Origin: an uncultured Chloroflexia bacterium
Lineage (GTDB): Bacteria; Chloroflexota; Limnocylindria; Limnocylindrales; CSP1-4
DNA: 64,000 nucleotides
Assembly: GCA_963755995.1 (NCBI GenBank)
Contig: CAVWLQ010000003.1
Location: 981,580-1,045,579, forward strand
Reading direction: 5' to 3'
Shown here: piece by piece, positions 3,584 to 31,707 of the stretch
How positions within the stretch are numbered: position 1 is the stretch's first letter
Layout: the number at the start of each line of letters is the position of its first letter
Program-made: the position numbers and the translations under genes
Notes under the pieces: generated by a model
What the model saw: the letters and a program-made list of their open reading frames with translations, nothing else
What the model was told of the DNA's origin: nothing
Database searches by the model: none

Positions 3584-3642
3584 GCGTCAACGATCGTATC
3601 GGGCTACGCCGGAAGGTCACACGCTTGCTGCCGGACATAAGG

Positions 3643-3674: not shown

Positions 3675-3722
3675 AGTGGAGGCGACGACCGGATTCGAAC
3701 CGGTGAATAGAGGTTTTGCAGA
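3675..3722 (-). repeat. orphan 3' fragment of tRNA-Cys (anticodon loop to CCA plus 2 nt): distal att-like direct repeat
   Basis: 48/48 nt identical to 32931..32978 (AGTGGAGGCGACGACCGGATTCGAACCGGTGAATAGAGGTTTTGCAGA). No tRNA 5' half follows it, and the sequences diverge at 3723 versus 32979. Confidence 0.9.
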
Positions 3723-3804
3723 ACTGGGGATAGGCCAATCCCCCACCCAATTCGTGCTCAGTGTATCCGCTGGAGTGGGCTGGAAACCGGTCGAGGATGA
3801 CACG

Positions 3805-3849: not shown

Positions 3850-4329
3850 CTAACCAACAGCTCCAACACGCGGTTCGAGCACGACGACAGCCGTCTTCCT
3901 GGTCCGCATCGCCGCCCAGGCGTCGTAATCGTCGCTGAACTCGCGCCAGCGGGCCCATAGTCGATCACGTTCCTCGCCTTCCGCGGCGCGACCGCGGACT
4001 TTTCGGGGTCCGTCCACCAGCTGGACCGTCGTGTCGGGCTGTGCCTGGAGGTTCAGCCACCAGGCGGGCTCTGCCTCCGCCCAGCCATTCATGGCCAGGG
4101 TGACCAGGTTCGGTCCGTCTTCAAGGTAGCCGAAGATCGCGACCCGTGGCTGCCCTGAGCGTCGTCCGAGCGTCCTCAGGCGCATCATCCCGAACTTGCT
4201 GCCGGGCTCTGGTGGGCGGAGGCCGATCCGCCCTGCTGTGAACCTAAACAGCGCGCGGTGGAGTATCCAGGCAGCACGGACGATCGGACGCGGGGGAAGC
4301 GTCGCCGCCTGCTTTCGCGCGGCGGTCAT
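3850..4329 (-). CDS. deazaflavin (F420)-dependent nitroreductase family protein (TIGR00026 / DUF385, Ddn-like), copy a
   Basis: 159 aa with family-typical GRRSGQPRVAIFGYLEDGPNLVTLAMNGWAEAEPAWWLNLQAQPDTTVQL...ERDRLWARW. Its ATG overlaps the stop of the upstream DUF4386 gene (ATGA at 4326-4329). Confidence 0.85.
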   Translation of the reverse strand: MTAARKQAATLPPRPIVRAAWILHRALFRFTAGRIGLRPPEPGSKFGMMRLRTLGRRSGQPRVAIFGYLEDGPNLVTLAMNGWAEAEPAWWLNLQAQPDTTVQLVDGPRKVRGRAAEGEERDRLWARWREFSDDYDAWAAMRTRKTAVVVLEPRVGAVG

Positions 4330-5126
4330 GCCGCACCTGCAACCGCTGTTGCGGTGGCCGGTGATGGGGCAACGATCGGCAACACGTCTCCGGATCGAGC
4401 AAGCAGGGTGGCGGCAGCACCGGGCTGGAAGCCCCTGAAGATGAGGTACAGACCAAGGATCCCGATCTCCCAGACGATCTCGAGGACCGTCGCGAGGCCC
4501 TGCGCGGGGGAGCCGAGCTCGATGACACCGAAGAGGATGGCGATACCGGAAGCCATCACGAGCGGGCCACCGATCATGCCGAACATCGTCAGGCGGCGCG
4601 AGAGCAGGCCCGAGCGGTACATGAGATAGCCCAGCAGCAGCCCGTTCCCGAGGCCGGACATGAAACCTGGCCCGAGCAGGAAGGTCCAGTCATGGACGGC
4701 GACGAGTGACTGGCTGGCGACGAGCAACGAGCCGGGATCGGCGCCGGCCCCGTCCTGCCGGAGCGTCTCAACGGCCAGGAGGCTGAGCATGCCGACGACG
4801 ATGAGCGCGGCTTCGATGAAGCGAGCGGCGACGTAGCTGAGTGCGAGGGTCTCGTTCTGGCGCCGCAGGAGCGGGAACAACACCATCGCGGTGGCGATGT
4901 TGGCGATCACGGTGAGGATCTCGAAGAAGGCGCCGAGGGACACGCTATTGCCGGCACCAGGACCGAGGACGTAGGCCGGGTCGTTGAGGACCGGGCCGTA
5001 AGCCAGGACGCCGGGGATGGCAAAGACGAGGGTCAGGACGAACAAGATGCCGACTGCAAACGCAGTCTTTCGCTGGGCGTCCATCGGGACTCGGTTCGTT
5101 GCTGGGGTTCGAACGGGGTTCGTCAT
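4326..5126 (-). CDS. DUF4386 membrane protein, copy a
   Basis: 266 aa, multi-TM. RKTAFAVGILFVLTLVF...LGAFFEILTVIANIATAMVLFPLLRRQNETLALSYVAARFIEAALIVVG... matches the DUF4386 pattern and the paralogues at 26291 and 30909. Confidence 0.8.
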   Translation of the reverse strand: MTNPVRTPATNRVPMDAQRKTAFAVGILFVLTLVFAIPGVLAYGPVLNDPAYVLGPGAGNSVSLGAFFEILTVIANIATAMVLFPLLRRQNETLALSYVAARFIEAALIVVGMLSLLAVETLRQDGAGADPGSLLVASQSLVAVHDWTFLLGPGFMSGLGNGLLLGYLMYRSGLLSRRLTMFGMIGGPLVMASGIAILFGVIELGSPAQGLATVLEIVWEIGILGLYLIFRGFQPGAAATLLARSGDVLPIVAPSPATATAVAGAA

Positions 5127-5177: not shown

Positions 5178-5864
5178 CTATGCGGCGCTGGTCTGATCGG
5201 GCTGCGACAGCACCAGGGCAGGGAGTGGTTCAGAGGCTGGCGCTCGCTGCTCCGCCCAGAGCGCGTAACCCAGCCATGCGAGACCCAGGCCGATCGGCAC
5301 CGCCGCGATACGGGGTGCGTCCAGGGCGGCCGTCAGGGGCGCCGATACGATGATCCCGAAGGCGAACAGAGCGGCCGCCGGACGGGGCAGGATCCGCGCT
5401 CGGATGGTGGCGATGCCAAAGACGATGCAACCACCGAGGAACAGGGCGCTTGAGATCGAGTAGATCGTCGGCAAGGCACCGAGATCGAGATCGGACGGCG
5501 CATTCTCGACCATCCCCAGCAAGCCGGTGACATAGGCTGGCGACAACGCGGCGAGGATCGGCTCGATGAATGCCTCGACGAAGGTGAACGCAGCCGTGAT
5601 CAGAAGCCCCAGGCTCAGCGCGATGTAGCCGACGAGGCCGAGCCAGCCCGCCTTCTCGACCTGACGGGCGTAGATCCCGGTGAGGCCGGCCAGGAAGAGG
5701 ACCAGCATCACGCAGCTCGCCTGGTGGATGGCCGACCAGGCCGGCGTCGTGACCGATTGCAATGTCTCGGGCGGGTGGATGGGCTGGATGACCACGAACA
5801 GGACTCCGGCCGCGATCGCGGCGACGCCAGTCGAGCGAATCAGTCCAGGGGCAGTGACCTTCAT
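5178..5864 (-). CDS. polytopic membrane protein of unknown function (present only in cassette copy a)
   Basis: 228 aa with about 6 hydrophobic segments and good coding appearance. Its ATG overlaps the stop of the upstream small gene (ATGA at 5861-5864). Confidence 0.65.
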   Translation of the reverse strand: MKVTAPGLIRSTGVAAIAAGVLFVVIQPIHPPETLQSVTTPAWSAIHQASCVMLVLFLAGLTGIYARQVEKAGWLGLVGYIALSLGLLITAAFTFVEAFIEPILAALSPAYVTGLLGMVENAPSDLDLGALPTIYSISSALFLGGCIVFGIATIRARILPRPAAALFAFGIIVSAPLTAALDAPRIAAVPIGLGLAWLGYALWAEQRAPASEPLPALVLSQPDQTSAA

Positions 5865-6184
5865 CGTGTCCTCCGTTCATGTGAGATGTAGGAATCGGTT
5901 GTAGAGATGGGTTCGGTGCCTGCTGAGGTCGCGAGTGGACGTTCCGACTCGGACTCGTTGACCGAGATCAGCGTCACGCCCATGTCGCGCAACTTCTGGA
6001 GCAGACCATGGAGAGCCGCCTGATCGGCAACTGGTCCGGAGACCAGGGTCGTGCCGTCGCTCGCGTGGGTCAGGGACATCCCGCCGAGCCAATCGGCCCA
6101 GCTGCCGTCGAGGCGTCCCTTCAGGCGGATCTCGTACCGCGTCGCCTCGTGGCGCTGGTCAGTCGATCCGCGGCGCTTGTCCAT
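5861..6184 (-). CDS. conserved small protein of unknown function (RYEIRL...DQAALHGLLQK-R family), copy a
   Basis: I prefer the internal ATG at 6184, which is preceded by GGAAGGAG. The core RYEIRLKGRLDGSWADWLGGMSLTHASDGTTLVSGPVADQAALHGLLQKLRDMGVTLISV aligns with the copies at 25984 and 30615. Confidence 0.75.
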   Translation of the reverse strand: MDKRRGSTDQRHEATRYEIRLKGRLDGSWADWLGGMSLTHASDGTTLVSGPVADQAALHGLLQKLRDMGVTLISVNESESERPLATSAGTEPISTTDSYISHERRTR

Positions 6185-6305: not shown

Positions 6306-9038
6306 TCAGCGGTCGCCGACTCGCGAAAGGAGGCCGAGCTCTTCGCCGCGCCGAACGGCGGCCCGGCGGCTATTCACCCCGAGCTTTGCGTAGATGCTCT
6401 TGGTGTGCGAACGGACGGTGCTCAGCCCAACGACCAACTCGTCCGCGATGCCGGAGCCATCAAGATCCGAGGCGAGCAACCGAAGGACATCAAGCTCCCG
6501 CTCGCTGAGCGGCTCAGCGAGACTTTGTCCATCGCCTGAGGGACGGCCGATTCGTCCGAAGGCGTCGACGAGGCGACGAACGTACTCCGGCATGATGTCG
6601 CGTTTGGCGGCCGCCGCCAGCATCGCTGCCATCGGGGCACCCTCGCCCACGAACGATCGGACATAGCCGTCCGGCTCTGCGGTGGCAAGTGCTCGACCGA
6701 GCGGCTCGAGCCCTGCCGTGCTGCGACCGCGCTCGTGCTGAGCCAGCGCCTGCAGGATGAGGATCTCGATGACACTCCGCCACCGCTCCCCCGTTTCGGC
6801 GGCGATGAGCAGCCGCTCGAGAAGTGCGACGGCTTGTTGGATCGAGCGCGGATCATGGACCCGGGTCCCGCGAGCGAGGAGCACCCTCGCGAGGGTGATG
6901 TACTCGTACTCGCTCAGGTAGCTGAGGTCGTCGTCCACTGACAGACCGCGCTCGCCCACCCAGGCCTCTGCCTCGCGCACATGGCCCCGGGCGGCATGGA
7001 TTCGCGCTACTTGCGCCGGGATGGGGCGAACGAGCGGGTAGTACTCGCTCACAAACACACGCTGAGCATCAGCAAGCAATGCGAGGGCACCGTCGGCATC
7101 CCCATCAGCCATACGAAGCTGTGCCTTGGCCACCCGCGACCGGTATGGGTTCTGGGCCAAGCCAGCATTGTCCCCGAGGTCATCACTCTGTCGCAGATGA
7201 CCAGCCGCGCCATCGAGATCGTTCCACTCGAGCAACAGCTCGCTCATCCCGACGTGCATGTCGCCTGCACCACGGAGGACCGTCGTCCGGTCAGTCGCCA
7301 TGCGCAAGCCGCGTTCGTAGGTTCGCATCGCCTCGTGCAGACGACCTTGGGCGACGCGAATCTCCGCCAGTGGTCGGTTGCAACCGATCGCGTCGACGGC
7401 GTGGCCCGCACGCTGCAAGGAGGCCATCGCCTCGGACCAGAAGCCATGGGCCGCCTCGAGGTCGCCGTTCCCCCAATGCGCGAAGGCGAGAAACCCCGCC
7501 CCCCCGGCTCGCCCGAGCGGATCGCCATCGCCGGCCAGGGTGAAGGCTTTCAGCGCGAAGGCTTCTACGCGCTCGGGGTCACCCTCGAGTTGCGCCTGGG
7601 CGGCTCGATACAGGGCGACCGTACTCGGCAACCGCTGGAACTCAGCTTCGTCCGCCACGACCATCGGCCCGGGCGCGATCGTCTGGTTTTCACCCTTGCC
7701 GGATGTCGGTTCCAGCCATCGCTCGGCGCCTTGCAGGAGCGCTTCGATGTCGGCGACCTCGCCATGGGCCATGAGGGTTCCGACATACCCCACGCTCAGG
7801 ACCGGCCGGACCTCGAATAGATAATCGGGAAGCTGCTCGAACCACTGTCGCATCGTCCCCTCTTGGCGCGCCCGGCGGAGCCCCGGGATCGCCAACTCGA
7901 TCATGCCGGCTGCCCGCTCGAAGTCTTCCCCAGCCAGAGCGTGGCGAATGGCGTCGTGTGGCTCGCCACTCTGCTCGAACCAACGGCTCGCGCGCCGGTG
8001 GAGGTCAAGGGCGCGGTCCGGCTCTTCGCGCACCAGGCGCGCCCGGAGGACATCCGCGAACAGGTGGTGGTATCGATACCACTCGCGCCGAGCATCCAGG
8101 GGGATCACAAAGAGATTCCGCCGATCGAGGAGCTCGAGCATGCTCTGGCCGCCGTCGAGACCCGTGACCGCATCGCATAGTGGGCCGGACAGCCGATCGA
8201 GGATGCTCGTCCGTAGGAGGAATTGGCGGATGTCCTCGGGTTGGCGCTGCAGGACTTCCTCGGCGAGGTAGTCGACGACGAAGCGATCGTCTCCAGTGAA
8301 GCTCGCGATGAAGGCACCGATGTCGTCGCGGCCCTGCATCGACAAGGCGGCAAGCTGGAGCGCCGCGATCCAACCCTCGGTCCGCTCCTCCAGCGCGGCG
8401 ACCTCGTCCGACTCGAGGTCCAGATCGGCCGCCTGATTCAGGTATGCCGCGGCCTCGTCATGCGTGAAGCGCAGTTCTGCCGCCCGTACCTCAACGAGTT
8501 GCCCTTGCGCCCGGAGGCGCGCCAGGGGGAGGGCTGGATCGGCGCGCGTTGTGATCGCGACGTGCGCTGATGGTGGCAGGCACTCGACCAGGAACGACAC
8601 CTGGTCGAGGACATCGCTCGCGTCGATGACATGGAAGTCATCGAACACCAACATGACATCGGAGCCGACGGACCCAATCTCGTTAGCGAGTGATGTCACG
8701 ACCGTCTCGATGGGCGGTGGTCGGGACCCCTCCACCATCGCGATGGTCTCTGCGGCCGACGGCACCGCCCGGTGGAACGCGGTGGCGACGCTGAACCAGA
8801 ACGCACTGGATTCGTTCTCGGCTGTATCGAGCGACACCCAGACCGGGAGCAGGTCGTCTGAGACCGAGGCGAGCCAAGTGGCAAGCAGCGTGGTCTTGCC
8901 GAACCCAGGCGGCGCGGAGATGAGAGTGACCTTAGCGTGAGGTGCTCCACGCAACCGCTCCGAAAGCCGATCCCGGCGCACCAAGTCCTCGCGCGGGCGA
9001 GGAACGTAGAACTTCGCATCGGGAAGGGTGCGGGCCAC
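6306..9038 (-). CDS. MalT-like large ATP-binding LuxR-family (LAL / STAND) transcriptional regulator, copy a
   Basis: 910 aa. It has an N-terminal P-loop ([13 protein letters not shown]), a long helical/TPR-like middle region and a C-terminal LuxR HTH ([12 protein letters not shown]...[24 protein letters not shown]). Confidence 0.9.
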
Positions 9039-12005: not shown

Positions 12006-12980
12006 ATGCAGGCCATCGTCCAGGACAAATACGGCTCAGCCGAGGTTCTCCGCCTCACGGAGATCGAGAAGCCCGCGATCGGGGACCACGATGTGTTGGT
12101 TCGGGTTCGTGCGGCCGGCGTCAACCCGGCCGACTGGGCGCTGATGAACGGCTTCCCGTACATCGCGCGGCCCGCGCCTCTGTACGGCCTGCTCAAGCCA
12201 ACTAACCCGGTCCGCGGAACGGACGTCGCGGGGCAGGTCGAGTCCGTTGGCGGCGGCGTGACGCGGTTCCACCCGGGGGACGAGGTCTTCGGCTCGTCGG
12301 TCGGTTCGTATGCCGAGTTCGCCGCTGCCGCGGAAGACACGCTGGCGATCAAGCCCTCCAACCTGACATTCGACCAGGCGGCCACGGTGCCGATGGCCGG
12401 GACGGTCGCGCTGCAAGCGATCCGCGATCACGGCAAGGTCGGGCCTGGACAGCAGGTGCTGATCAACGGCGCCTCGGGTGGCATCGGCACCTTCGCGGTC
12501 CAGATCGCGAAGGCTCTGGGTGCAGAGGTCACCGCCGTGGCCAGCGCCCGGAACGTCGACCTGCTCCGATCCATCGGCGCGGACCACGTCATCGACTACG
12601 CAACGGAGGACTTCACCCGGACCGGCGAGCGGTACGACTTCATCCTCGACAACGTATCGAACCGCTCGCTGACCGAGCTGCGGCGCGCGCTCACACCGAA
12701 CGGGATGCTCATCCCGAACGGGGGCAATTTCGGCAATCACTGGTTCTCCAGCGCCGGGCGCCTTGTGCGGGCGACCGTGCTGTTCCGCTTCGGCGGCCAG
12801 CGATTGGGGCGGTTCCTGGTGTCCATGAACCACGCAGACCTCGTCGTCCTCAAGGAACTGATCGAGGCCGGCAAGCTCACGCCTGTCATGGATCGCACGT
12901 ATCCGCTGAGCGCCGTGGCGCAGGCGATGGACCACGTGGGCCAGGGACATGCCCAGGGAAAGGTCGCGATCACCGTATGA
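12006..12980 (+). CDS. NAD(P)H:quinone oxidoreductase / zinc-type alcohol dehydrogenase superfamily (MDR) protein
   Basis: 324 aa. VLVRVRAAGVNPADW..., the Rossmann motif INGASGGIGTFAVQIAKALGAEV and the ending ...GHAQGKVAITV are typical of Qor-like MDR enzymes. Confidence 0.85.
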   Translation: MQAIVQDKYGSAEVLRLTEIEKPAIGDHDVLVRVRAAGVNPADWALMNGFPYIARPAPLYGLLKPTNPVRGTDVAGQVESVGGGVTRFHPGDEVFGSSVGSYAEFAAAAEDTLAIKPSNLTFDQAATVPMAGTVALQAIRDHGKVGPGQQVLINGASGGIGTFAVQIAKALGAEVTAVASARNVDLLRSIGADHVIDYATEDFTRTGERYDFILDNVSNRSLTELRRALTPNGMLIPNGGNFGNHWFSSAGRLVRATVLFRFGGQRLGRFLVSMNHADLVVLKELIEAGKLTPVMDRTYPLSAVAQAMDHVGQGHAQGKVAITV

Positions 12981-13054
12981 CGCGCCACCCCACTGCGCTC
13001 GATCCCGACACTCTGCGGCCGTCCGGCCGCCCAATCCATCGACAAGGAGACGAA

Positions 13055-13831
13055 ATGACATCCAACACTCAGCTCCGCGACGCGGTTGGTGAAGCCGACC
13101 TGACGTTGGAGGACCCGCAGGGCCCCGGCAAGCGTTACTCCAGGATCTTCGGCGCGCTCTTTATCGCCGGGTTCCTCTTTTACGGTATCGGCTTCGGCCT
13201 GGTGAGCTCGGTGACTACGGCGCCGGACTTCATGTCGACGCTTGCCGCCAACTCGACCGTGCTCGTGGTTGGCGCATTCCTGATGCTCCTCAACACGGCC
13301 CTCGACATCGGGAAGGGTGTCCTGTTCTTCCCGATCGCTGAGCGCCGGGGCAAGCGCACCGGGCTCGTCTACCTCGCCGCAATCACAGCCCAGGTCGTCC
13401 TCCTGGACCTCGGGGTGCTGTTCCTCCTGATGCTTGTACCGCTGAGCGCATTCGTCACCGGCGCCACCGACAGCTGGGCCACTGGGCTCGGATCGCTCCT
13501 GACGCAGGCGAATACCCTCGCATACGAGCTTGGCCAAGGCACCCTGGCGTTCGGGGCACTGTTCATGACCTGGTTCGTGTTCCGGACGCGGATGGTGCCC
13601 AGAACCCTCGCACTCTGGGGCGTCGTCGGCTACGCGATCCACCTCACTGGAGCGGTTGCCGAGATCTTCGGGGTCCACGTGTCGCTCTTGCTGTCGCTCC
13701 CCGCAGGACTGTTTGAAGTCGCCTTTGGGGTCTGGCTGATCGCCAAGGGGTTCAACTCGATCGTCACGTCGCCTGGTCGAGGACTCGCTGATCGGCCCCA
13801 GCCTTCGGCGACGTTGGCACCGGCTCAATGA
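13055..13831 (+). CDS. DUF4386 membrane protein
   Basis: Internal ATG at 13055, preceded by AAGGAGA. Multi-TM, with the characteristic C-terminus ...MVPRTLALWGVVGYAIHLTGAV...LPAGLFEVAFGVWLIAKGF. Confidence 0.75.
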   Translation: MTSNTQLRDAVGEADLTLEDPQGPGKRYSRIFGALFIAGFLFYGIGFGLVSSVTTAPDFMSTLAANSTVLVVGAFLMLLNTALDIGKGVLFFPIAERRGKRTGLVYLAAITAQVVLLDLGVLFLLMLVPLSAFVTGATDSWATGLGSLLTQANTLAYELGQGTLAFGALFMTWFVFRTRMVPRTLALWGVVGYAIHLTGAVAEIFGVHVSLLLSLPAGLFEVAFGVWLIAKGFNSIVTSPGRGLADRPQPSATLAPAQ

Positions 13832-18308: not shown

Positions 18309-19101
18309 ATGACCACCGCAATCCAGACCGGGACCAGGCAGCGGACGATTTCCGAGCGCTCGACCGTGGCCTCACCCAAGCGCCTCGCGAGGATCGCGGG
18401 CCTCCTCTATCTCGCCGTTGGCATCTTGGGCGGGTTCGCCTTTGCCGGCGTCTACAGCGCCATGTACGTGGCAGGCGATGCGGCCGCCACCGCCGGCAAC
18501 CTGTTCGCGAACGCCGGACTCGTCAAGATCGGCGTCGCCGCGGACCTGATCCAGGTGGTCGTCTGGGTCTTCCTGGCGCTGACCCTCTACGTGCTGCTCC
18601 AGCACGTGAGCGGCTACGCCGCGCGCGCAATGGTCGTCCTGGTGGCGATCGGAGCGTCGATCAGCTTCCTGAACATCCTGTTCGAGTTCCAGGGCATGCG
18701 GATCGCGACCGACCCGACCTACACCGCGACGGTCGGCGCCGCGGGAGCGACGGCCCTTGCCATGGTGATGCTCGACCTGCAGCACTACGGCTATGCGATC
18801 GCCGGGATCTTCTTCGGTCTGTGGCTGGTGCCGCTCGGCTATCTCGCCTTCAAGTCAGGCATGTTCCCGCGGGTGCTGGGTGTCGTCCTCGTCGTCGGTG
18901 GCATCGGCTACCTGTTCGACACGCTCGCCGACATTCGTGGCCCCAGAGCTGACCCCGATCATTCACCCGATCGCAGCACTGCTTGGCATCGTCGCAGAGG
19001 TGTCACTCCTCGCCTACCTCCTCGTGAAGGGAGTGCGCAGTCCCCGCGTCGAGGACCGGCCGTCCGCGACGGCCGCGACTCCGGCGCCAGCGGCTGCGTA
19101 G
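18309..19101 (+). CDS. DUF4386 membrane protein, +1 frameshift near 18934
   Basis: ORF 18309..19223 is DUF4386-like up to ...GYLFDTLAD. The true C-terminus (VAPELTPIIHPIAALLGIVAEVSLLAYLLVKGVR) lies in ORF 18793..19101. Removing one T from the TT at 18934-18935 joins them. Length is 793 nt, which is 1 mod 3. Confidence 0.75.
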
Positions 19102-19219
19102 GCCAACGAACCGCCGGACCCAATTTCCTCCGTCGCGGCGGCATTCGCCGCCGCGACGGGACCTTTCTGCAGCCAAACCACGGAGCGCACCCGCTCCGCC
19201 GACCAAAGGAGCGACCGCC

Positions 19220-19655
19220 ATGATCCAGTCACCCGCGACGACCGCCCTGACGCAGTCCACTACCCCGGACCGGACCGACGAGACTGACCAGACCTGGATC
19301 CGGCCATGGCTCCGGATCGAGGGCCTCGCCGTCTTCGCCGCCGGACTCGCAGGCTTCCTCTTCCTGGGCCCGCAGTGGTGGGCCTTCCCGCTCCTGCTCC
19401 TCGTCCCGGACGTGTCGATGGTCGGCTACCTGCGCGGTCCGCGGGTCGGTGCGATCGTCTACAACCTTGCCCATGATCTCGCGACCGGCGTGGTGATCGC
19501 CGGCTGTGGGCCTGGCCAGCGGGAGCGTGCCCGTGGCCGCCATCGGCGCCATCTTCGTGGCGCACAGCGGGATGGACCGGATGATGGGCTACGGCCTGAA
19601 GCTCCCGAGTTCATTCAAGGACACCCACCTCGGCCGGATCGGTCGCGGCCACTGA
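19220..19655 (+). CDS. DUF4260 membrane protein, +1 frameshift near 19508
   Basis: ...WLRIEGLAVFAAGLAGFLFLGPQWWAFPLLLLVPDVSMVGYLRGPRVGAIVYNLAHD... continues in another frame as LASGSVPVAAIGAIFVAHSGMDRMMGYGLKLPSSFKDTHLGRIGRGH*. The extra G lies in GGG 19508-19510. Confidence 0.7.
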
Positions 19656-19826
19656 GGCAACGAGCGTTTGACTCGGACCGCCTTTCGGCCGCACCCGGAG
19701 GGCGGTTCAGTTGGCTCCAAGGGGTGCGGGGACTTCGTCGCGTGAGGACGCGGTGGCTTGGCACGACCTGCCCCATCGAAATCGGCTGAGACGATCGCGT
19801 CCGCCGATCCCGACGACGTAACGCGG

Positions 19827-21742: not shown

Positions 21743-23071
21743 GTGCTCAAGCTCGGTGCCATCATCGCCGCCGGCGGCGTGGCTGCACCGTTGCTCGCCG
21801 CGTGTGGTGCGTCGCGTGGAACCGCCTCGGCGCCCACCGGGACCGTGTCCGGGCCGATCACCGTCCTGGTCGGAGGCAGCGATCCGAGCACAGAGCCTGC
21901 ACTGAAGCGCGTCTATGACGACTTCAAGACCGAGAACCCCGGGATCGTCTGGGACATCCGCGCGATCTCCGGCTTCGGTGCTGAACTGGATCGCCTCTCG
22001 CGCGCCGCATTGGAGTCCGGCGAGCCGGTGGGGCTCGTGACGATCGACGGACTGTTCGTTCGAGCCTGGACGCGCGATGGCCTGCTGGCGGACCTCGGCG
22101 CGGACCCCGGGATGGCCTCGGTGCTTGGCCGCGTGCCTCCGTCGTTCCACCTGGGCGGTCCCGGAGAGACCACGACCAGGGCGTTTCCACTCGCCCTGAG
22201 CCGGGGCGTCCAGACCACGGGCCTGTACTACAACAAGGCGCTCCTGGACCGGGCCGGTCTCGAGCCACCGAAGACGATCGCGGACCTCAAGGCGATGGTC
22301 GCGCCCTTGGCGTCGCTCGGCGCAGCACCTCTGGTCCACTGCTCCGGTGACGTCTCCTTCAACACCCTGCTCATCACCTGGCTGCTGCCGATGATCGCGG
22401 AGCGAACGGGCGACCCGCTGGCATTCGTCGAGAGCACGATCCGAGGCGACATCGGGTACGACAACCCTGAGTGGACCGAAGCCTTCCAGATCATCGCCGA
22501 CCTCCGGACGTCCGGCGTCCTGCTCGCGGGGTCCGGGGCGACCGACTACGCGACGATGCAACTGCTCTTCCTGCAGGGAAAGGCCGCCATGACCTACAAC
22601 GGCACGTGGCTTCTCGCGCCTCTCCAGAAGGGCACGCCGACGGTCCCCTTCGACATTCACGTAGCTCCCCTACCCCTCGTTCATGAGGGGGCGACGGCCC
22701 GCTCCATCCTTGCCTGGGGTGGCCTCGCGATGCCCGCCAAGACCGCCGCGAGCCATGACAGCGTGGTTGCCTTCCTTGAATACGCGAGTCGGCCCGAGGT
22801 GGACAAGGCCATCGTCGAGGGCCTGCAGGTCTATTCACCCATCGCGGCATCGAACAGCGGGATCCACGACCCCGTCGCGCGGGAGTTCCTGCCGATGTTC
22901 GAGGACGCCATCACGCCACTCAACTGGCTGTGGGAGCCGGAGATCGAAGCCGAGATGGACGACCAGATCCAGGCTCTCGTGAAAGGCGATACCGACCCCG
23001 CGTCGGTCGGGAAGGCCATCGAGGCCGTCGCCCAGGACCTGCGGACGTCAGGACGCGGTTACTACAGTTGA
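21743..23071 (+). CDS. ABC transporter extracellular solute-binding protein, family 1 (sugar), lipoprotein
   Basis: 442 aa. The signal peptide ends in the lipobox LLAAC. It is divergent from the two permease genes. In-frame codons just upstream read GRRD before VLKLGA, a Tat-like RRxxLK motif, but no start codon is available there. Confidence 0.8.
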   Translation: MLKLGAIIAAGGVAAPLLAACGASRGTASAPTGTVSGPITVLVGGSDPSTEPALKRVYDDFKTENPGIVWDIRAISGFGAELDRLSRAALESGEPVGLVTIDGLFVRAWTRDGLLADLGADPGMASVLGRVPPSFHLGGPGETTTRAFPLALSRGVQTTGLYYNKALLDRAGLEPPKTIADLKAMVAPLASLGAAPLVHCSGDVSFNTLLITWLLPMIAERTGDPLAFVESTIRGDIGYDNPEWTEAFQIIADLRTSGVLLAGSGATDYATMQLLFLQGKAAMTYNGTWLLAPLQKGTPTVPFDIHVAPLPLVHEGATARSILAWGGLAMPAKTAASHDSVVAFLEYASRPEVDKAIVEGLQVYSPIAASNSGIHDPVAREFLPMFEDAITPLNWLWEPEIEAEMDDQIQALVKGDTDPASVGKAIEAVAQDLRTSGRGYYS

Positions 23072-25821
23072 CCGAGAGCCATATCCGCCCGCTGCTCGAG
23101 ACCAAGCTCTACGTCCCCACGCTGCGACGCGGTCTGGTGACACGTCCGAGACTGAGTGAGCGGCTGAACCGCGGTGGCGAGTCGAAGCTGACCCTGGTCT
23201 CCGCGCCCGCCGGCTTCGGCAAGACCACCCTGCTGGCCGAGTGGCTGGCATCCACTCCGGTCGAGAAGCAGACGGCGTGGCTCTCGCTCGACCCAAGCGA
23301 CAACGAGGCCGCACCCTTCTGGCCCTATGTGATCGCTGCGTTGCAGACGGCGGCGCCTGGGATCGGCGCAACTGCTCTCTCCCTCCTGCAGGGCCCCCAG
23401 CCACCGCCGATCGAGACGGTCTTCGCGACGCTGCTCAACGAGCTCAGCGCTCTGCCGAACGACGTCGTGCTGGTGCTCGACGACTACCACGTGATCGACG
23501 CGCACGACATCCAGGACGGGATGGCGTTCCTGCTGGAGCACCTGCCGCCGCGGCTGCACCTCGTGATCACTACCCGCGCCGACCCTGCGCTGCCGCTGGC
23601 TCGCCTGCGGGCGCGTGGCGAACTCGTCGAGATCCGTGCGGCCGACCTGCGCTTCACGCCGGAGGAGGCCGCCGCGTACCTCAACGAGGTGATGGGGCTG
23701 GATCTCGGGGCGAGCGAGGTTGTCGCGTTGGAGGCGCGGACCGAAGGGTGGATCGCCGCCCTCCAGCTGGCAGCGCTCTCGATGCAGGGCCGAGACGACG
23801 TCGCGGGCTTCATCGCGGGATTCGCCGGGGACGACCGCTACATCGTCGACTACCTGGCCGACGAGGTCTTGCACCGTCAACCCGAACATGTCCGCCAGTT
23901 CCTACTGCAGACCTCGATCCTGGGTCGGCTGACTGGCCCGCTCTGCGATGCCGTTACTGGTCATGAGGGCGGCACGGCGATGCTGGAGGCGCTCGATCGC
24001 GGGAACCTCTTCCTCGTCCCGCTTGATGACCGCCGGCGCTGGTATCGCTACCACCAGCTCTTTGCCGACGTGCTGCGCACGCGCCTCTTCGATGAGCAGC
24101 CAGCGTGGGTGCCCGACCTGCACCGTCGTGCCAGCGACTGGTACGAGCACAACAGTGACCGCTCCGAGGCAATCCGGCACGCGCTGGCGGGCGAAGACTT
24201 CGACCGAGCCGCCAGCCTGATTGAGTTGGCGGTGCCGGCGCTCCGGCAGGGTCATCATGAGGTGACGGCGCTCCGGTGGCTTAGGGCGCTACCGGATGAG
24301 GTCATCGGGCCAAGACCGGTCCTGAGCGTCGCCTACGCCTGGGCGCTGTTGTCCATCGGCGAGCTCGAGGACGTCGAGCGCCGTCTGGGAGACGGCGAGC
24401 GCTGGCTCACGGCGCCCCACGGTGTGCCAGATGAAGCCGGAGCCGGGCGGCCGGAGATGGTTGTCGTAGACCGGCGCGAGTTCAGCCTCCTGGCTGCGCT
24501 GATCGCGGTCTACCGAGCCGTGCTTGCCCAGATCCGAGGCGACGTCGCGACGACCGTCCGGCACGCTCGCGAGGCACTGAATCTGGCTCCCGAGGACGAC
24601 GATCTCCTCCGCGGGGCAGCGGAGGCGCTCTTGGGATTGGCCACATGGGCGAGCGGGGACCTCGAGACCGCGCATCGAATCTACGGCGCTGGGATGGCGC
24701 GGGTGCAGCGGTCTGGCAGCCTCTCTGATGCGCTCGGTGGTGCGATCGCCCTGGCGGACATCCGGATCACCCAGGGACGGCTGCGTGACGCGATCCGGAC
24801 GTACGAGCAGGCATTGCAACTGTCGGCGAAGCATGGCGAGCCAGTCCTGCGGGCCACGGCGGACATGTACGTGGGACTGAGCGACCTCGCCCGTGAGCAG
24901 GGCGACCTCCAGGCCGCCACACGGCATCTCCAGGCGAGCAAGGACCTGGGCGAGCACATGGGCTACCCGCAGAACCGCTATCGGCTGCATGTCGTGACGG
25001 CCCGCATCCGGCAGGCTGAAGGGGACCTCGATGGCGCGCTCGATGCAATCCACGAGGCACAGCGCGTGTACATGCCGGACTTCATCCCGGACGTCCGTCC
25101 CTTGCCGGCGCAAGAGGCGCGAATCCTGCTCAGGCAGGGGCGGTTGGCCGAAGCGAATGCGTGGGCTCGGGCGCGAGGCCTGTCGCCTCACGACGACCTG
25201 ACGTATCTGCGCGAGTTCGAGCACGTCACGCTTGCGAGGGTGCTCCTGGCCCAATCCACGCTGGACCCTTCGGACGGGTCTGCCCGTGACGCCCTCGCGC
25301 TACTGGGTCGCCTGCTGCGAGCAGCGGAGGACGGTCAGCGGACGGGCAATGTCATCGAAATCCTTGTCCTGCTGGCGCTTGCCCACCAGGTGCGAGGCGA
25401 CATGCCTGCCGCTCTTGCCGCCCTCGGACGTGCCCTGGCGCTCGGCGAACCGGAAGGCTATGTTCGCGTCTTCCTCGATGAGGGCCCACCCATGGCGGCC
25501 CTGCTGCAGGACGCCGCGAACCGGGGAATCGCCCCGGACTACGTTCGCCGCCTTCTGACGGCCGCTGTCCGCCCCGAGGACAACGCCGGGAACAAGGAGG
25601 CGCTCATCGAGCCGCTGAGCGACCGTGAGCTTGACGTGCTGCGGCTGCTTGCAACGGATCTGGCCGGACCGGAGATCGCCCGTGAGCTCGTGGTGTCGCT
25701 GAGCACGGTGCGGAGCCACACCAAGGCCATCTACGCAAAGCTCGGCGTGAACAACCGCCGGTCCGCCGTGACCCAGGCCGAGGAACTCGACCTCCTCTCG
25801 CGAGCCCGCGACCGACCGTAG
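23068..25821 (+). CDS. MalT-like LAL / STAND-LuxR transcriptional regulator, copy b
   Basis: The TTG start at 23068 overlaps the SBP stop (TTGA) and gives (M)TESHIRPLLETKLYVPTL..., collinear with the N-termini of copies a and c. It has a P-loop ([13 protein letters not shown]) and a C-terminal HTH ([24 protein letters not shown]). Length 917 aa. Confidence 0.88.
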   Translation: MTESHIRPLLETKLYVPTLRRGLVTRPRLSERLNRGGESKLTLVSAPAGFGKTTLLAEWLASTPVEKQTAWLSLDPSDNEAAPFWPYVIAALQTAAPGIGATALSLLQGPQPPPIETVFATLLNELSALPNDVVLVLDDYHVIDAHDIQDGMAFLLEHLPPRLHLVITTRADPALPLARLRARGELVEIRAADLRFTPEEAAAYLNEVMGLDLGASEVVALEARTEGWIAALQLAALSMQGRDDVAGFIAGFAGDDRYIVDYLADEVLHRQPEHVRQFLLQTSILGRLTGPLCDAVTGHEGGTAMLEALDRGNLFLVPLDDRRRWYRYHQLFADVLRTRLFDEQPAWVPDLHRRASDWYEHNSDRSEAIRHALAGEDFDRAASLIELAVPALRQGHHEVTALRWLRALPDEVIGPRPVLSVAYAWALLSIGELEDVERRLGDGERWLTAPHGVPDEAGAGRPEMVVVDRREFSLLAALIAVYRAVLAQIRGDVATTVRHAREALNLAPEDDDLLRGAAEALLGLATWASGDLETAHRIYGAGMARVQRSGSLSDALGGAIALADIRITQGRLRDAIRTYEQALQLSAKHGEPVLRATADMYVGLSDLAREQGDLQAATRHLQASKDLGEHMGYPQNRYRLHVVTARIRQAEGDLDGALDAIHEAQRVYMPDFIPDVRPLPAQEARILLRQGRLAEANAWARARGLSPHDDLTYLREFEHVTLARVLLAQSTLDPSDGSARDALALLGRLLRAAEDGQRTGNVIEILVLLALAHQVRGDMPAALAALGRALALGEPEGYVRVFLDEGPPMAALLQDAANRGIAPDYVRRLLTAAVRPEDNAGNKEALIEPLSDRELDVLRLLATDLAGPEIARELVVSLSTVRSHTKAIYAKLGVNNRRSAVTQAEELDLLSRARDRP

Positions 25822-26259: not shown

Positions 26260-26290
26260 CCCAATACGAACGAACGAAAGGGAAACCGAC

Positions 26291-27100
26291 ATGACAACCG
26301 CCGATCGAACCGCGGCAACGAAACGACCGCCGATGGACTCGATGCGGAAGACCGCGCTCGTCGCGGGCATCCTCTACCTGATCACCTTCATTTCGGTCGC
26401 GACACTGACCCTCTACGGCCCCGTGTTGAAAGATCCGGCCTACATCCTGAGCTCCGGAAGCGACGCCGGCCTGCGTTGGGGCGCCCTCATCGACGTGATC
26501 GTCGCGCTCGCCGGCATCGGCGCCGCCATCACGCTGTACCCGGTCGTCAGGCGCCAGAACGAGGCCGTCGCCCTTGGGTTCGTTACCTCCCGCGTCATCG
26601 AGGGCGCGATGCTCCTCACGGGTGTCGTGAGCCTTCTCTCGCTCGCGTCGCTGCACCAGGTGGGCGCCGCGGCCGGCGCCGACTCGACCGCGCTTCTCAC
26701 CAGTGGCGCCTCGTTCGTCGGGACGTACAACGCGGCGTTCCTGATCGGCGGGACCCTCATGCCCGCGGTGAATGCCCTTCTGCTCGGGTACCTGATGTAC
26801 CGATCCAGCCTCGTGCCGCGACTCATTCCCGCGATCGGACTCGTCGGCGGCGTCTTGATGACGTCTTCCGCGATCGGACAGATCCTCGGCATCAACGAGA
26901 AGATCTCGGTGTGGTCCCTCATCGCACTCCTGCCGATCTTTCTCTGGGAGCTGTCACTCGGCATGTGGATGACCTTCAAGGGGTTCCGCAAGGAAGCGCC
27001 GCTGATGGTCGAGGCCGCGGCCGAGGCGGAGAGCCCGCACGGATCGGCACCGGCAGTCCTGTCACCGATCCCCGTCGCGACGACGGCGGGTGCAGCGTGA
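26291..27100 (+). CDS. DUF4386 membrane protein, copy b
   Basis: 269 aa, intact. RKTALVAGILYLITFISV...ALLPIFLWELSLGMWMTFKGFRKEAP. Confidence 0.85.
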   Translation: MTTADRTAATKRPPMDSMRKTALVAGILYLITFISVATLTLYGPVLKDPAYILSSGSDAGLRWGALIDVIVALAGIGAAITLYPVVRRQNEAVALGFVTSRVIEGAMLLTGVVSLLSLASLHQVGAAAGADSTALLTSGASFVGTYNAAFLIGGTLMPAVNALLLGYLMYRSSLVPRLIPAIGLVGGVLMTSSAIGQILGINEKISVWSLIALLPIFLWELSLGMWMTFKGFRKEAPLMVEAAAEAESPHGSAPAVLSPIPVATTAGAA

Positions 27101-27564
27101 CCGCCACCGAGGCGCGGCCGACTCGTGTCCCGCCGCGAGTGGTCATCCGTGTTGTCTGGCTGCTGCACCGCGCACTCCTTCGGTTCAGCGGGGGACGGGT
27201 CGGGCTGCGGGCTCCGGGCGACAAGTTCGGGCTGCTGCGCCTGACGACGGTTGGGCGCCGCTCGGGTCAGCCACGAGTCGCGATCGTTGGGTACTACGAG
27301 GACGGCCCGAACCTGGTCACGTTGGCGATGAACGGCTGGGCCGAGGCCGACCCCGCGTGGTGGCTGAACCTGCAGGCGCACCCGGACACCGTCGCCGCGT
27401 TGGATGACGGCGTGCGTTACGTCCGTGGTCGCGCGGCGGAAGGCGCGGAGCGCGATCGGCTCTGGGCTCGGTGGGTCGAGTTCAGCGACCAGTACGACGC
27501 TTGGGCCGCGCTGCGCTCCGGGAGGACCGCGGTGGTCGTGCTCGAGCCTCGCGCCGCCGCGTGA
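27097..27564 (+). CDS. deazaflavin (F420)-dependent nitroreductase family protein (TIGR00026), copy b
   Basis: The GTG at 27097 overlaps the DUF4386 stop (GTGA). 155 aa: ...GRRSGQPRVAIVGYYEDGPNLVTLAMNGWAEADPAWWLNLQAHPDT...ERDRLWARW... Confidence 0.85.
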   Translation: MTATEARPTRVPPRVVIRVVWLLHRALLRFSGGRVGLRAPGDKFGLLRLTTVGRRSGQPRVAIVGYYEDGPNLVTLAMNGWAEADPAWWLNLQAHPDTVAALDDGVRYVRGRAAEGAERDRLWARWVEFSDQYDAWAALRSGRTAVVVLEPRAAA

Positions 27565-27690: not shown

Positions 27691-30441
27691 GTGACCAGTT
27701 CACTGCTCGAAACCAAGTTCTACCCCCCGAGGCAGCGCAGTGGCCTGGTGCCCCGGCCACGCTTGACAGAGCGCCTCGATCGCGGCGTCCAGTCCAAGTT
27801 GACGCTCGTCTCAGCACCAGCTGGCTTCGGGAAGTCCACGCTCGTGGCCGAATGGCTTGCGGCGACACCCGCCGAAGGACCGCTCGCCGCGTGGCTATCG
27901 CTCGACGCGAGCGACAACCATCCGATGGCGTTCTGGACTCACGCGATCGTGGCCCTGCAGAAGGTGGAGCCAGCGGTCGGCGCCAGTTCGCTGTCCCTGC
28001 TCGAAGCATCCGGCCCATCGATCGAGACCGTCCTTGCGCCGCTCCTCAACGACCTCGACCTTGTAGCGAAGGACATCGTTCTGGTGCTCGACGACTACCA
28101 CACGATCGAGGCACCGGAGATCCAGGTCGGCATCACGTTCATGCTCGAGCACCTTCCGGCCAATGTGCATCTGGTGATCACCACCCGCGCCGATCCGGTC
28201 CTGCCGCTGGCGCGAATGCGGGCGCAGGGGGAACTGGTCGAGGTCCGTGCCGCGGACCTGCGCTTCACGCCGGACGAGGCCACGGCCTACCTCAACGACG
28301 TGATGACGCTGGGGCTGACTGCTGGAGATGTCGCCACGCTGGAAGGTCGGACCGAAGGCTGGATCGCGGCTCTCCAGCTCGCGGGACTCTCGATGCAGGG
28401 GCGAAACGATCACGCCGCCTTCATCGCCGGATTTGCCGGCGATGACCGCTACATCGTCGACTACCTGGTCGAGGAGGTCTGGCAGCGTCAACCGGACCAC
28501 CTCCGCGACTTCCTGTTGCAGACCTCGATCCTGGCCCGCATGACCGGCCCACTCTGCGATGCCGTCACCGGCCAGGCTGGCGGCAAGGCGACCCTGGAAG
28601 CGCTGGATCGACGGAACCTGTTCCTGATCCCGCTCGACGACCGGCGACGGTGGTATCGCTACCACCACCTGTTCGGCGACGTCCTGCAGACGCGTCTGCT
28701 CGACGAGCAGCCCGAAGTCCTCGCGGAGCTGCATCGGCGGGCAACCGAGTGGTACACGCAGGAAGGGGAACCCGACGAGGCGATCCGCCACGCGATCGCG
28801 GGCGGCGACTTCGAACGTGGGGCGGACTTGGTCGAGTTGGCGATCCCCGCGATGGGCCGTGACCGTCGGGAGGCGACCTTACGTCGGTGGCTCGAGGCGC
28901 TCCCGGAAGAGTCGATCCGCGTCCGCCCCGTGCTGAGTGACGGCTATGCCGGTGCGTTGCTCGTCCGCGGCGAGATCGACGGGGTGGAGGCACGCTTGGC
29001 GGACGCCGAGCGGTGGCTCAAGCTGACGGCCGAGTCGCTTGCCGGCGAGGGATCCCGGCCGGTCGCGATGGTGGTCGCGGACGAAGCGGCGTTCCGCAGT
29101 CTGCCGACGTCGATCGCCATCCACCGAGCCGGGTTGGCCCGGAAGATCGGGGACGACACCGCGACGGTGACCCACGCGCGCCGCGCCCTCGAGCTCGTCG
29201 GCGAGCACGATCATCTCGGGCGCGGTGGCGGCGCCGCGCTCCTGGGCCTCGCTTACTGGGCCGTCGGCGACTTGGACGCGGCGCAGCGGTCCTACGCCGA
29301 TGCCATTTCCAGCCTGGAGAAGGCGGGGCACCGATCGGACGAGATCGGCCTGGCCCTCGGCCTGGCCGACATGCAGATCGCGCAAGGCCGTCTCCACGAT
29401 GCGCTGCGGACCTACGAACGAGGACTGGAGCTTGCAACAGGTGAGGGCGGCGACGTCCTCCGTGGAGCGGCTGATATGCACGTAGGCATCAGCGAGATCC
29501 TCCGTCAGCGCGATGACCTCGTCGGCGCGGCGCGTCACCTGCAGTCGGCCTCGGAGCTCGGTGAGGAGAATGGCCTGCCGCAGAACCCGTACCGGTCGCG
29601 CGTGGCCGCCGCTCGGATCAGGCTGGCGGTGGGAGACGTCGAGGCGGCCCTCCAACTCCTGGGGGAGGCGGACCGCCTGTACGCGAATGACTTCTCGCCC
29701 GATGTGCGCCCGGTCAGTGCCCTTCGGGCACGGGTCTGGATCACGCAAGGACGGCTCCCCGAGGCCCTGAGCTGGGCACGCGAGTCTGGCCTTTCAGCCG
29801 CGGATGAGCTCGACTATGTCCGCGAGTTCGAGCACATCACCTTGGCCAGGCTGCTGCTCGCCCAGGGAGTGCGCGACCGACCCGGCACCGGCCGCGGAGA
29901 CGCGATCGATCTCCTCGAGCGGCTCCTCGCGGCAGCCGAGGACGGCGGGCGAACGGGCAGCGTGATCGAGGTCCTGGTCGTCCAGGCTCTCGCTCGGTGG
30001 GCGCTCGACGACGCGCCGGGTGCGCTCGGGTCGCTCGAGCGCGCGGTGAAGCTCGCGGAGCCGGAAGGCTACGTCCGCGTCATCGCCGACGAGGGCCCGA
30101 CGATGGCAGCGCTGCTGCGTTCGGTGACACAGCGGCGGGACGCGTCCGACTACCTGCGCACACTCCTGGCCGCCACCGTCACCCCGGCTGCGCCGGCGCC
30201 GGCCGATCGGTCACTGGTCGAGCCGCTCAGTGAACGTGAACTCGAGGTCCTCCGCTTGCTCGGCGGCGACCTCGACGGCCCTGACATCGCGCGGGAACTC
30301 ACGGTGTCGTTGCCCACCGTCCGGACGCACACCAGCAACATCTACTCGAAGCTGGGCGTCACGAGTCGCCGCGCCGCGGTCCGTCGCGCCAGCGAGCTCG
30401 GTCTCCTCCAGAGCGGCGACGGGCGACGCACCACCGGCTGA
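27691..30441 (+). CDS. MalT-like LAL / STAND-LuxR transcriptional regulator, copy c
   Basis: 916 aa, GTG start with GAGG upstream. MTSSLLETKFYPPRQ..., P-loop VSAPAGFGKSTLV, C-terminal HTH LPTVRTHTSNIYSKLGVTSRRAAV. I estimate roughly two-thirds identity to copy b by eye. Confidence 0.9.
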   Translation: MTSSLLETKFYPPRQRSGLVPRPRLTERLDRGVQSKLTLVSAPAGFGKSTLVAEWLAATPAEGPLAAWLSLDASDNHPMAFWTHAIVALQKVEPAVGASSLSLLEASGPSIETVLAPLLNDLDLVAKDIVLVLDDYHTIEAPEIQVGITFMLEHLPANVHLVITTRADPVLPLARMRAQGELVEVRAADLRFTPDEATAYLNDVMTLGLTAGDVATLEGRTEGWIAALQLAGLSMQGRNDHAAFIAGFAGDDRYIVDYLVEEVWQRQPDHLRDFLLQTSILARMTGPLCDAVTGQAGGKATLEALDRRNLFLIPLDDRRRWYRYHHLFGDVLQTRLLDEQPEVLAELHRRATEWYTQEGEPDEAIRHAIAGGDFERGADLVELAIPAMGRDRREATLRRWLEALPEESIRVRPVLSDGYAGALLVRGEIDGVEARLADAERWLKLTAESLAGEGSRPVAMVVADEAAFRSLPTSIAIHRAGLARKIGDDTATVTHARRALELVGEHDHLGRGGGAALLGLAYWAVGDLDAAQRSYADAISSLEKAGHRSDEIGLALGLADMQIAQGRLHDALRTYERGLELATGEGGDVLRGAADMHVGISEILRQRDDLVGAARHLQSASELGEENGLPQNPYRSRVAAARIRLAVGDVEAALQLLGEADRLYANDFSPDVRPVSALRARVWITQGRLPEALSWARESGLSAADELDYVREFEHITLARLLLAQGVRDRPGTGRGDAIDLLERLLAAAEDGGRTGSVIEVLVVQALARWALDDAPGALGSLERAVKLAEPEGYVRVIADEGPTMAALLRSVTQRRDASDYLRTLLAATVTPAAPAPADRSLVEPLSERELEVLRLLGGDLDGPDIARELTVSLPTVRTHTSNIYSKLGVTSRRAAVRRASELGLLQSGDGRRTTG

Positions 30442-30908: not shown

Positions 30909-31707
30909 ATGACTACCAACATCGCGAACCGACTCTCGATGAGCTCGATGCGCAAGATCGCGCTCGTCGCGGGCGTCCTGTACCTGCTCACGTTCATCAG
31001 CTCGATCCCGGCCGTCTTCCTGCAGAGCCCGGTCCTGAACGATCCCAACTTCATCATCGGCAGCGCCGGCGCCGACACCCAGGTCCGCCTCGGCGCCCTC
31101 TTCGACATCGTCAATAGCCTCACCGCGATCGGGACCGCGATCGCGCTCTATGCGGTCATCAAGCGCCAGAGCCAGAGCTTCGGCATCGGCTTCGTCTGCT
31201 CGCGGCTGTTCGAAGGCACCGTCCTCATGATCGGCGTCATCAGCATCCTGTCGATCGTGACCCTGCAGCAGCCTGGCGCGACCGGAGCCGAGGCCTCACT
31301 GCTGGTCACCGTGCAGCACACGCTCGTGACCGTCCGCAATTGGACTTTCGTGCTCGGGACCGGCGTCCCTGCCCTCAACGCCTTCCTGCTGGGCTGGATC
31401 ATGTACAAGTCGCGCCTCGTCCCGCGTGCGATCCCGGTGATCGGACTCATCGGAGCGCCGCTGTTCACCTCCTGGATCATCGGCTACGTCCTCGGCGTCA
31501 CCGAGCCCGGTACCGCATGGCACGGGATCGGCGGTCGCTCCGATCTTCATCTGGGAGCTGTCCCTCGGCCTGTGGATGACCTTCAAGGGGTTCCGCAAGG
31601 AGGCTCCGCTCATGATCGAGGCCGCCGCCGAAGATGCCAGCCTGGCTGACTCCGCCAGCGTCACCCGCTCGTCGATCGGCGTCGCAGCCAACGCGGGTGC
31701 CGCGTGA
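30909..31707 (+). CDS. DUF4386 membrane protein, copy c, +1 frameshift near 31533
   Basis: ORF 30909..31649 loses the family C-terminus after ...TAWHGIG. Removing one G (GG 31533-31534) restores ...VAPIFIWELSLGLWMTFKGFRKEAPLMIEAAAE... ending at TGA 31705-31707. Length is 799 nt, which is 1 mod 3. Confidence 0.78.

Follow-up and report, generated by a model that had tools for sequence, protein, structure and literature searches.

In a 64,000-nucleotide stretch of the genome of an uncultured Chloroflexia bacterium (contig CAVWLQ010000003.1; the whole stretch is hereafter called the window), three genes for membrane proteins of the family DUF4386 are each followed by a gene for an F420-type nitroreductase (NR), and we find that in many soil bacteria DUF4386 and NR form a conserved two-gene unit on one mRNA in which the start codon of the NR is embedded in the stop codon of DUF4386. 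A functional partnership of the two proteins at the membrane is likely, while a role of DUF4386 as the physical anchor of an F420-dependent reductase is an unproven idea. The real unit is larger than the pair, being made up of a MalT-like large LuxR-family (LAL) regulator, a small 91-aa ACT-like protein, DUF4386, the NR and sometimes a DUF4260 membrane protein. Neither the regulator nor the 91-aa protein had been mentioned in the original prediction for this DNA, which was made from the sequence alone.

The family labels DUF4386 and TIGR00026/PF04075 given in that prediction are borne out by Pfam and NCBIfam scores well above the cut-offs. The three NR-linked DUF4386 copies score 129-147 bits against PF14329 (cut-off 27.6), the two other DUF4386 genes of the genomic island that holds the pairs score 96 and 143 bits, and the NRs score 62-70 bits against PF04075 (cut-off 22), with TIGR00026 scores of 63.8 and 65.9 bits (cut-off 46.35). 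An exact-sequence look-up of NR1 returned no record. The coordinates of all features are collected in Table 1.

A 4-nt overlap of the DUF4386 stop and the NR start had been claimed for every copy, which is true of pairs 1 and 2 as the sequence is written and of pair 3 only after the removal of one base. The reading frame of DUF4386 copy 3 that begins at 30909 terminates at 31649, and the conserved C-terminus (APIFIWELSLGLWMTFKGF...AGAA*) sits in the +1 frame, ending with the TGA at 31705-31707. Deleting a single base at 31530-31533 yields an intact 265-aa DUF4386. No independent public contig covering these positions has the extra base; among them are one of 188 nt that otherwise matches the window exactly, four from another run and one derived from RNA. 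The frameshift is thus very probably an assembly error, and the overlap is present in all three real gene pairs.

The overlap is also kept well beyond the window. Among 41 foreign DUF4386-NR pairs, i.e., pairs from other genomes and metagenomes, 36 have the 4-nt overlap (27 ATGA and 9 GTGA), and the remaining five have a spacer of 94-106 nt. The 16 nt before and the 9 nt after the NR start are far better conserved than the DUF4386 tail upstream of them, which is variable and is disordered in the AlphaFold2 model. The junction has the consensus GCGACGAAGGCGGGTGCGGC-ATGACCGCC, and at the DNA level its core motif AAGGCGGGTGCGGC[A/G]TGACCGCC has been kept in different phyla. Positions -14 to -5 are taken up by the G-rich AAGGCGGGTG, probably a ribosome-binding-like site buried in the 3' end of the DUF4386 gene. 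Throughout the clade, the N-termini of the NRs start with 'MTA' at the overlap codon, and in the branch to which NR3 belongs the NR stop overlaps the start of a DUF4260 gene in the same manner (ATGA).

To place the pair in a wider setting, we compared 79 loci of about 12 kb around related DUF4386 genes, taken from different species (Chloroflexia, Actinomycetes, Thermoleophilia, Dormibacteria and Limnocylindrales metagenome-assembled genomes), in which the DUF4386 proteins are 48-63% identical to copy 1 and the partner genes were found with hidden Markov models (HMMs) built from the window proteins. An NR lies immediately downstream of DUF4386 on the same strand in 14 of the 79, and nowhere else in those loci. 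An unbiased Pfam count of the immediate neighbours ranks PF04075 first among the downstream families and alpha/beta hydrolases next, and the upstream neighbours are TetR, Crp/cNMP and MarR regulators; SDR, MDR, luciferase-like and ABM enzymes occur as sporadic neighbours. The co-occurrence of DUF4386 with TIGR00026-type, Qor and SDR genes put forward in the original prediction is thus strongly seen for PF04075, while Qor (about 3 of 79) and SDR (about 2 of 79) show no enrichment for such abundant families. The broader proposal that DUF4386 is a general partner of soluble reductases is not supported, as adjacency to Qor and SDR genes is at about the level of chance and an NR is missing from 65 of the 79 loci.

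The reverse comparison used 80 metagenome loci fetched via the NR and a tree of 95 NRs. In this tree the DUF4386-linked NRs form one clade, 41 of whose 45 evaluable members follow a DUF4386 gene, and in the sister clade none of about 38 evaluable members does so; the linkage needs 4 parsimony changes on the tree, as compared with 28 expected at random. In the DUF4386 tree the NR-linked genes fall inside the part linked to the LAL and small genes, with about 8 gains or losses. The linkage is therefore asymmetric: the NR clade is nearly always found with DUF4386, and DUF4386 is usually found without NR. Obligate co-occurrence of two subunits is not what these counts describe (14 of 79 as against 41 of 45, and none in the sister clade). 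NR loci that lack DUF4386 have mostly soluble neighbours, so no other membrane protein serves as a general partner of the NR family.

The same comparison shows how far the unit extends. The LAL and small genes lie directly upstream of DUF4386 in about 25 of the 79 loci, including every NR locus, and a DUF4260 gene follows the NR in 12-13 genome loci. The LAL-small-DUF4386 arrangement is the constant core, and the NR is an accessory present in roughly half of the cores; no consistent replacement enzyme was found in the LAL-small-DUF4386 loci that lack an NR. The same four genes also occur in another genomic context, in a locus (L160) with a relative 82% identical and a regulator of the same architecture as LAL regulator 1.

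Public RNA data support co-transcription of the unit. Four soil metatranscriptomes contain RNA contigs that match module 4 (small copy 2, DUF4386 copy 2 and NR2) with an identity of 95% or more. Contigs matching 25942-26359 and 26033-26536 span the small gene and DUF4386, and the DUF4386-NR2 junction at 27097 is crossed by contigs matching 26953-27551 (two contigs), 26965-27556 and 26509-27287. Because the coverage starts at about 25940 and stops at about 27555, with none past 27586, the data fit a small-DUF4386-NR transcript that is separate from the LAL gene. One RNA contig opens at 25942 right behind adapter sequence, a hint that the transcript begins about 42 nt ahead of the small gene. 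Module 4 or relatives at least 95% identical to it appear in many soil metatranscriptomes, at contig depths of up to about 270. For pairs 1 and 3 the RNA contigs are fragmentary and none crosses the DUF4386-NR junction.

The closest solved relative of the DUF4386-linked NR subclade is Ddn of Mycobacterium tuberculosis. A profile of the NR clade matches the split-beta-barrel Ddn structures 3R5P, 3R5L and 3R5R with an E-value of 4e-18 over residues 48-153, and the GRxSGxPR and PxWxLNL motifs align (GRRSGQPR with GRKTGQPR of Ddn, and PAWWLNL with PMWYLNL); the Ddn segment 'ASKGG' reads 'AMNGW' in the NR alignment. On these alignments the NR is an FDOR-A enzyme of the Ddn-like type, predicted to be F420H2-dependent. 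The original prediction had described Ddn as a membrane-associated F420H2-dependent quinone reductase, and the literature agrees, with menaquinone as a compound that it reduces (PMC3567243, PMC8498797). FDORs have been reported from Actinobacteria and Chloroflexi (PMC8498797), and the same two groups hold many of the related DUF4386 loci. Ddn (Rv3547, FDOR-A1) and the NR share the families PF04075 and TIGR00026 but differ in their setting, as Ddn is described as using an N-terminal amphipathic helix of its own for membrane attachment (PMC3567243) and no partner gene is named for it in PMC3567243 or PMC8498797, whereas the NR gene lies behind and overlaps the gene of a six-transmembrane (6-TM) protein and belongs to a unit with a LAL regulator. 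A conceptual likeness can also be drawn to the archaeal, complex-I-like Fpo/Fqo, in which F420H2 feeds electrons, through a soluble module docked on membrane subunits, into a quinone or phenazine of the membrane (PMC8498797). There is no homology, however, and Fpo/Fqo are large multi-subunit proton pumps, whereas the cassette is a unit of one to three proteins with no sign of energy coupling.

As for the cofactor itself, no clear gene for F420 biosynthesis was found in the 64-kb window. A CofD-family match at 40655..42061 adjoins WhiA (region 39859-42061, minus strand), and WhiA with a CofD-family neighbour is the usual arrangement for YvcK-type proteins. This gene is more likely of the YvcK type and is not evidence of F420 biosynthesis.

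The polytopic membrane nature suggested for DUF4386 in the original prediction agrees with structure prediction. The AlphaFold2 model of copy 1 (mean confidence score, pLDDT, of 84.9) contains six long helices at residues 15-42, 61-88, 92-125, 131-172, 177-198 and 207-230. The 11 Arg and Lys residues of loops and termini all fall on the same side, in the two terminal segments and in loops 2 and 4, an arrangement that implies an N-in/C-in topology. In this orientation the C-terminus and the conserved loops RRQNE and YRSGLxxRR would be within reach of a cytoplasmic NR. Polar residues are conserved inside the helices (E69, N76, R102, E105, E216 and E220) as well as in the first outer loop (YGPVLxDPxY), a pattern suggesting that DUF4386 has a site for binding or transport. 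Compared with the folds in the PDB, the model reached at best an E-value of 0.07 and a TM-score of 0.25, with rhodopsins matching by helix count only, and a profile search against PDB sequences gave no significant match, the best being ND4L at an E-value of 0.064. DUF4386 is a large family, with over 5,600 matches in one search. The window proteins are clear members of PF14329 (DUF4386) and PF14079 (DUF4260), both of which are families without an assigned function, and we found no mention of DUF4386 or PF14329 in the literature searched, where DUF4260 is named once in each of two papers.

The 91-aa protein always lies between the MalT-like LAL regulator and DUF4386. It has over 8,000 homologues at 70-98% identity, matches no Pfam or NCBIfam family and is thus a candidate new protein family. 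Its predicted fold is beta-alpha-beta-beta-alpha-beta, of ferredoxin/ACT-like type (pLDDT 75), and the matches of a fold search were all generic, being of ferredoxin, ACT, HMA and acylphosphatase-like type (E-values of 0.03-0.1); its profile had no significant match among PDB sequences. A possible role is that of a ligand-sensing partner of the LAL regulator. The window LALs share with the MalT/LAL regulators a STAND ATPase, a MalT-type winged helix with TPR and a GerE/LuxR HTH, and they lie directly upstream of the genes they presumably activate, as MalT-type regulators do. The window LAL differs in being followed by the family-less 91-aa protein, and it is not MalT itself, as it scores 370 bits against an equivalog cut-off of 537.

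Taking these lines together, we hold with moderate confidence that the cassette is an inducible module acting on a lipophilic, quinone-like compound: DUF4386 would handle it, and the Ddn-like NR, translated together with DUF4386, would reduce it with F420H2 at the cytoplasmic face of the membrane. The small-DUF4386-NR transcript would be turned on by the LAL regulator, for which the small ACT-like protein may serve as ligand sensor, and the overlap with its internal ribosome-binding-like motif would hold the ratio of DUF4386 to NR fixed. DUF4386, with six transmembrane helices and both termini inside, would bind or move the compound, and the NR would reduce it much as Ddn does menaquinone. DUF4386 would then be a substrate-handling partner and not a passive anchor, and the cassette a stress or xenobiotic response module and not a part of core respiration. 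In keeping with this reading, DUF4386 and NR diverge in a correlated way from pair to pair (Mantel r of 0.47, the highest permutation reaching 0.18), and the TetR, Crp and MarR regulators that adjoin other DUF4386 genes are typically found beside inducible membrane proteins that handle small molecules.

Several observations weigh against it. The sister clade of NRs, which has no DUF4386, is set apart by just two clade-specific positions and is almost identical in its conserved motifs, so the enzyme evidently works without DUF4386. No residue discriminates DUF4386 proteins with an NR from those without, and no DUF4386-NR fusion was seen among the top 120 homologues of either protein. Of the two proteins, the NR is the slower to evolve (mean distance of 0.31, versus 0.49 for DUF4386), and the window paralogues are 37-53% identical for DUF4386 versus 64-72% for the NRs. 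As the DUF4386 fold matches nothing solved, its substrate-handling role is proposed from context. The substrate, the use of F420 and its production by the host are likewise matters of inference. Finally, the RNA contigs come from close environmental relatives, and metatranscriptome libraries can carry DNA.

The strongest alternative is that the two proteins belong to the same operon or pathway and never touch: DUF4386 would be an independent permease, exporter or stress protein for the NR's compound or product, and the overlap would serve co-expression only. We regard this as somewhat unlikely. It sits well with the lack of partner-specific residues in both proteins and of fusions among the top 120 homologues, with the fact that most DUF4386 genes have no NR and a whole sister clade of NRs has no DUF4386, and with the TetR, MarR and Crp neighbours, which are typical of regulated transporters. 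However, the conserved overlap, the internal motif and the 91% fidelity of the NR clade exceed what co-regulation needs, and in one branch the NR lies between the overlapping genes of two membrane proteins, DUF4386 and DUF4260.

A narrow form of the original prediction goes further than a shared pathway and takes DUF4386 as the obligate anchor or quinone-site subunit of an F420H2:quinone reductase, with the same role towards Qor and SDR enzymes, which we consider unlikely. The translational coupling of the pair, the action of Ddn-type enzymes at the membrane (PMC3567243) and the conserved RRQNE and YRSGLxxRR loops and C-terminus on the predicted cytoplasmic side all speak for an anchor, as does the window module in which a Qor-like gene and DUF4386 are joined by a 4-nt overlap. 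Nevertheless, Qor and SDR neighbours are near chance, the majority of DUF4386 genes (65 of 79) have no NR to anchor, neither Ddn nor the sister clade depends on an anchor (PMC3567243 and the NR tree), and the conserved outer-loop and intrahelical residues suggest more than anchoring. A further reading, which we think decidedly unlikely, is that DUF4386, the NR and, where present, DUF4260 together form a hitherto unrecognised, inducible membrane F420H2 oxidoreductase of soil Chloroflexota, Actinomycetota and Dormibacterota, linking the cytoplasmic F420H2 pool to membrane quinones or to an acceptor that is lipophilic or extracytoplasmic. If this were true, the fast-diverging membrane subunit would set the acceptor specificity, which would explain why the cassettes of the island are multi-copy and diversified.

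The pair could also be read from the side of the regulator. MalT is controlled by the transporter subunit MalK, and MalT-type regulators are more generally controlled by membrane-transport partners; by analogy, DUF4386 would be a membrane sensor signalling to the LAL via the small ACT-like protein, with the NR as a mere output. The constancy of the LAL-small-DUF4386 core with or without NR is in line with such a sensor. Most DUF4386 genes, however, adjoin unrelated one-component regulators (TetR, Crp or MarR) or none, which better suits a regulated target, and the NR clade tracks DUF4386 and not the regulator, so that we find this very improbable. That the overlap is ordinary compaction in a GC-rich genome, and the adjacency without functional meaning, is hardly credible: 4-nt overlaps are indeed common in GC-rich operons (the window has a G+C content of 68.8%) and occur at other junctions of the island (small/228-aa protein, Qor/DUF4386, DUF4386/DUF4260 and NR3/DUF4260), but the conservation across phyla (36 of 41), the clade linkage (41 of 45), the co-transcription and the correlated divergence already disfavour this.

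Table 1. Features of the window, with positions counted from its first letter
Feature	Coordinates	Strand	Details
51-nt copy of tRNA-Cys 3' end	3675..3725		left island border
NR1, Ddn-like, predicted F420H2-dependent reductase (FDOR-A), 159 aa	3850..4329	-	PF04075 70 bits; TIGR00026 63.8 bits
Pair 1 overlap, ATGA	4326..4329	-	TCAT on the plus strand; NR1 start inside DUF4386 stop
DUF4386 copy 1, 266 aa, predicted 6-TM	4326..5126	-	PF14329 135.7 bits; six long helices (AlphaFold2)
228-aa membrane protein, ~5-TM, no family	5178..5864	-	between small gene and DUF4386, module 1
Small ACT/ferredoxin-like protein, copy 1 (start approximate)	5861..6184	-	HMM match 5912-6184, E 7e-40
MalT-like LAL regulator 1 (STAND ATPase, TPR, LuxR HTH)	6306..9038	-	NF003420 370 bits; GerE region
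Qor-like MDR reductase	12006..12980	+	overlaps fourth DUF4386; other module type, other LAL subfamily
Fourth DUF4386	12977..13831	+	
Fifth DUF4386 (C-terminus apparently frameshifted), then DUF4260	18309..19789	+	DUF4260 at 19220..19789 (split)
LAL regulator 4	22930..25821	+	true start probably near 23071
Small ACT-like protein, copy 2, 91 aa	25984..26259	+	
DUF4386 copy 2, 269 aa	26291..27100	+	PF14329 147 bits
NR2	27097..27564	+	GTG start 27097; GTGA 27097-27100 overlaps DUF4386 stop
LAL regulator 5	27691..30441	+	
Small ACT-like protein, copy 3, 91 aa	30615..30890	+	
DUF4386 copy 3	30909..31707	+	one extra base at 31530-31533, frameshift in the window
NR3	31704..32207	+	GTGA overlap 31704-31707
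DUF4260 membrane protein	32204..32608	+	PF14079; start overlaps NR3 stop by 4 nt (ATGA)
Direct repeat matching the left border	32931..32981		within intact tRNA-Cys (32933..33009, -)
Junction motif, pair 1	4317-4345	-	
Junction motif, pair 2	27080-27108	+	
Junction motif, pair 3	31687-31715	+	

All three pairs lie in an island of about 29.3 kb (3726-32930) that is bracketed by a 51-nt direct repeat, the two copies being 98% identical, and that contains five DUF4386 genes and five LAL regulators. The G+C content at third codon positions is about 0.78-0.87 within the island, compared with 0.88-0.97 beyond 33400. No integrase was found among the island open reading frames (ORFs) scanned, which were all but a few short ones, and as such the island looks like an old or degraded tRNA-integrated element. 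The three NR modules share the plan of MalT-like LAL, 91-aa protein, DUF4386 and NR; one of them has the added 228-aa membrane protein and another the trailing DUF4260, and two are related by a 4.6-kb tandem duplication. Within the window the 91-aa protein is confined to these three modules. The other two DUF4386 genes go with a different LAL subfamily, one beside Qor and SDR genes and one beside DUF4260. The neighbours that the original prediction had named for them were all recovered, i.e., the Qor-like gene with its DUF4386, an SDR gene ending at 15243, and the DUF4386 followed by DUF4260.

The fifth DUF4386 and its DUF4260 appear frameshifted or split (18944-19370), as do a TIM/iPGM ORF and SecD/SecF farther along the window (37489-39603 and 48127-50060); several split genes of this kind are a pattern typical of indel errors in a long-read assembly. 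The 228-aa protein has no Pfam or NCBIfam match and was considered as a relative of DUF4386, which was rejected as there is no detectable homology; it recurs beside DUF4386 or NR in six other loci (L003, L011, L082, L084, L106 and L119). Next to LAL4, the island carries a fragment of an ABC-transporter permease (19942-20592, minus strand) and a sugar-type solute-binding protein (21743-23071, plus strand), and similar solute-binding protein or permease genes flank LAL-small-DUF4386 units in three other loci (L062, L070 and L073). Just outside the left repeat, a GC-rich hairpin at 3640-3668 (AACGGCCC-GAAG-GGGCCGTT, followed by TTTTG) may be the terminator that followed tRNA-Cys before the insertion moved it away. 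A promoter and terminator scan around module 1 did no better than on shuffled sequences, and a scan against Rfam detected only tRNAs. The possibility of a defence island was rejected, PADLOC giving no defence-system match beyond an HTH region.

Returning to the reading of the cassette as an inducible module of a substrate-handling DUF4386 and its Ddn-like NR, the cassette provides the first testable context for DUF4386, placing it with a dedicated clade of Ddn-like F420H2 reductases, a MalT-like regulator and an unclassified 91-aa protein. The module is transcribed in several soil metatranscriptomes, with carry-over of DNA in the libraries being possible. F420-dependent reductases matter for xenobiotic degradation, for the activation of antibiotics and prodrugs and possibly for respiration. 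If the partnership is real, an NR clade with its own membrane partner would extend the use of F420H2 at membranes in abundant, mostly uncultured soil phyla.

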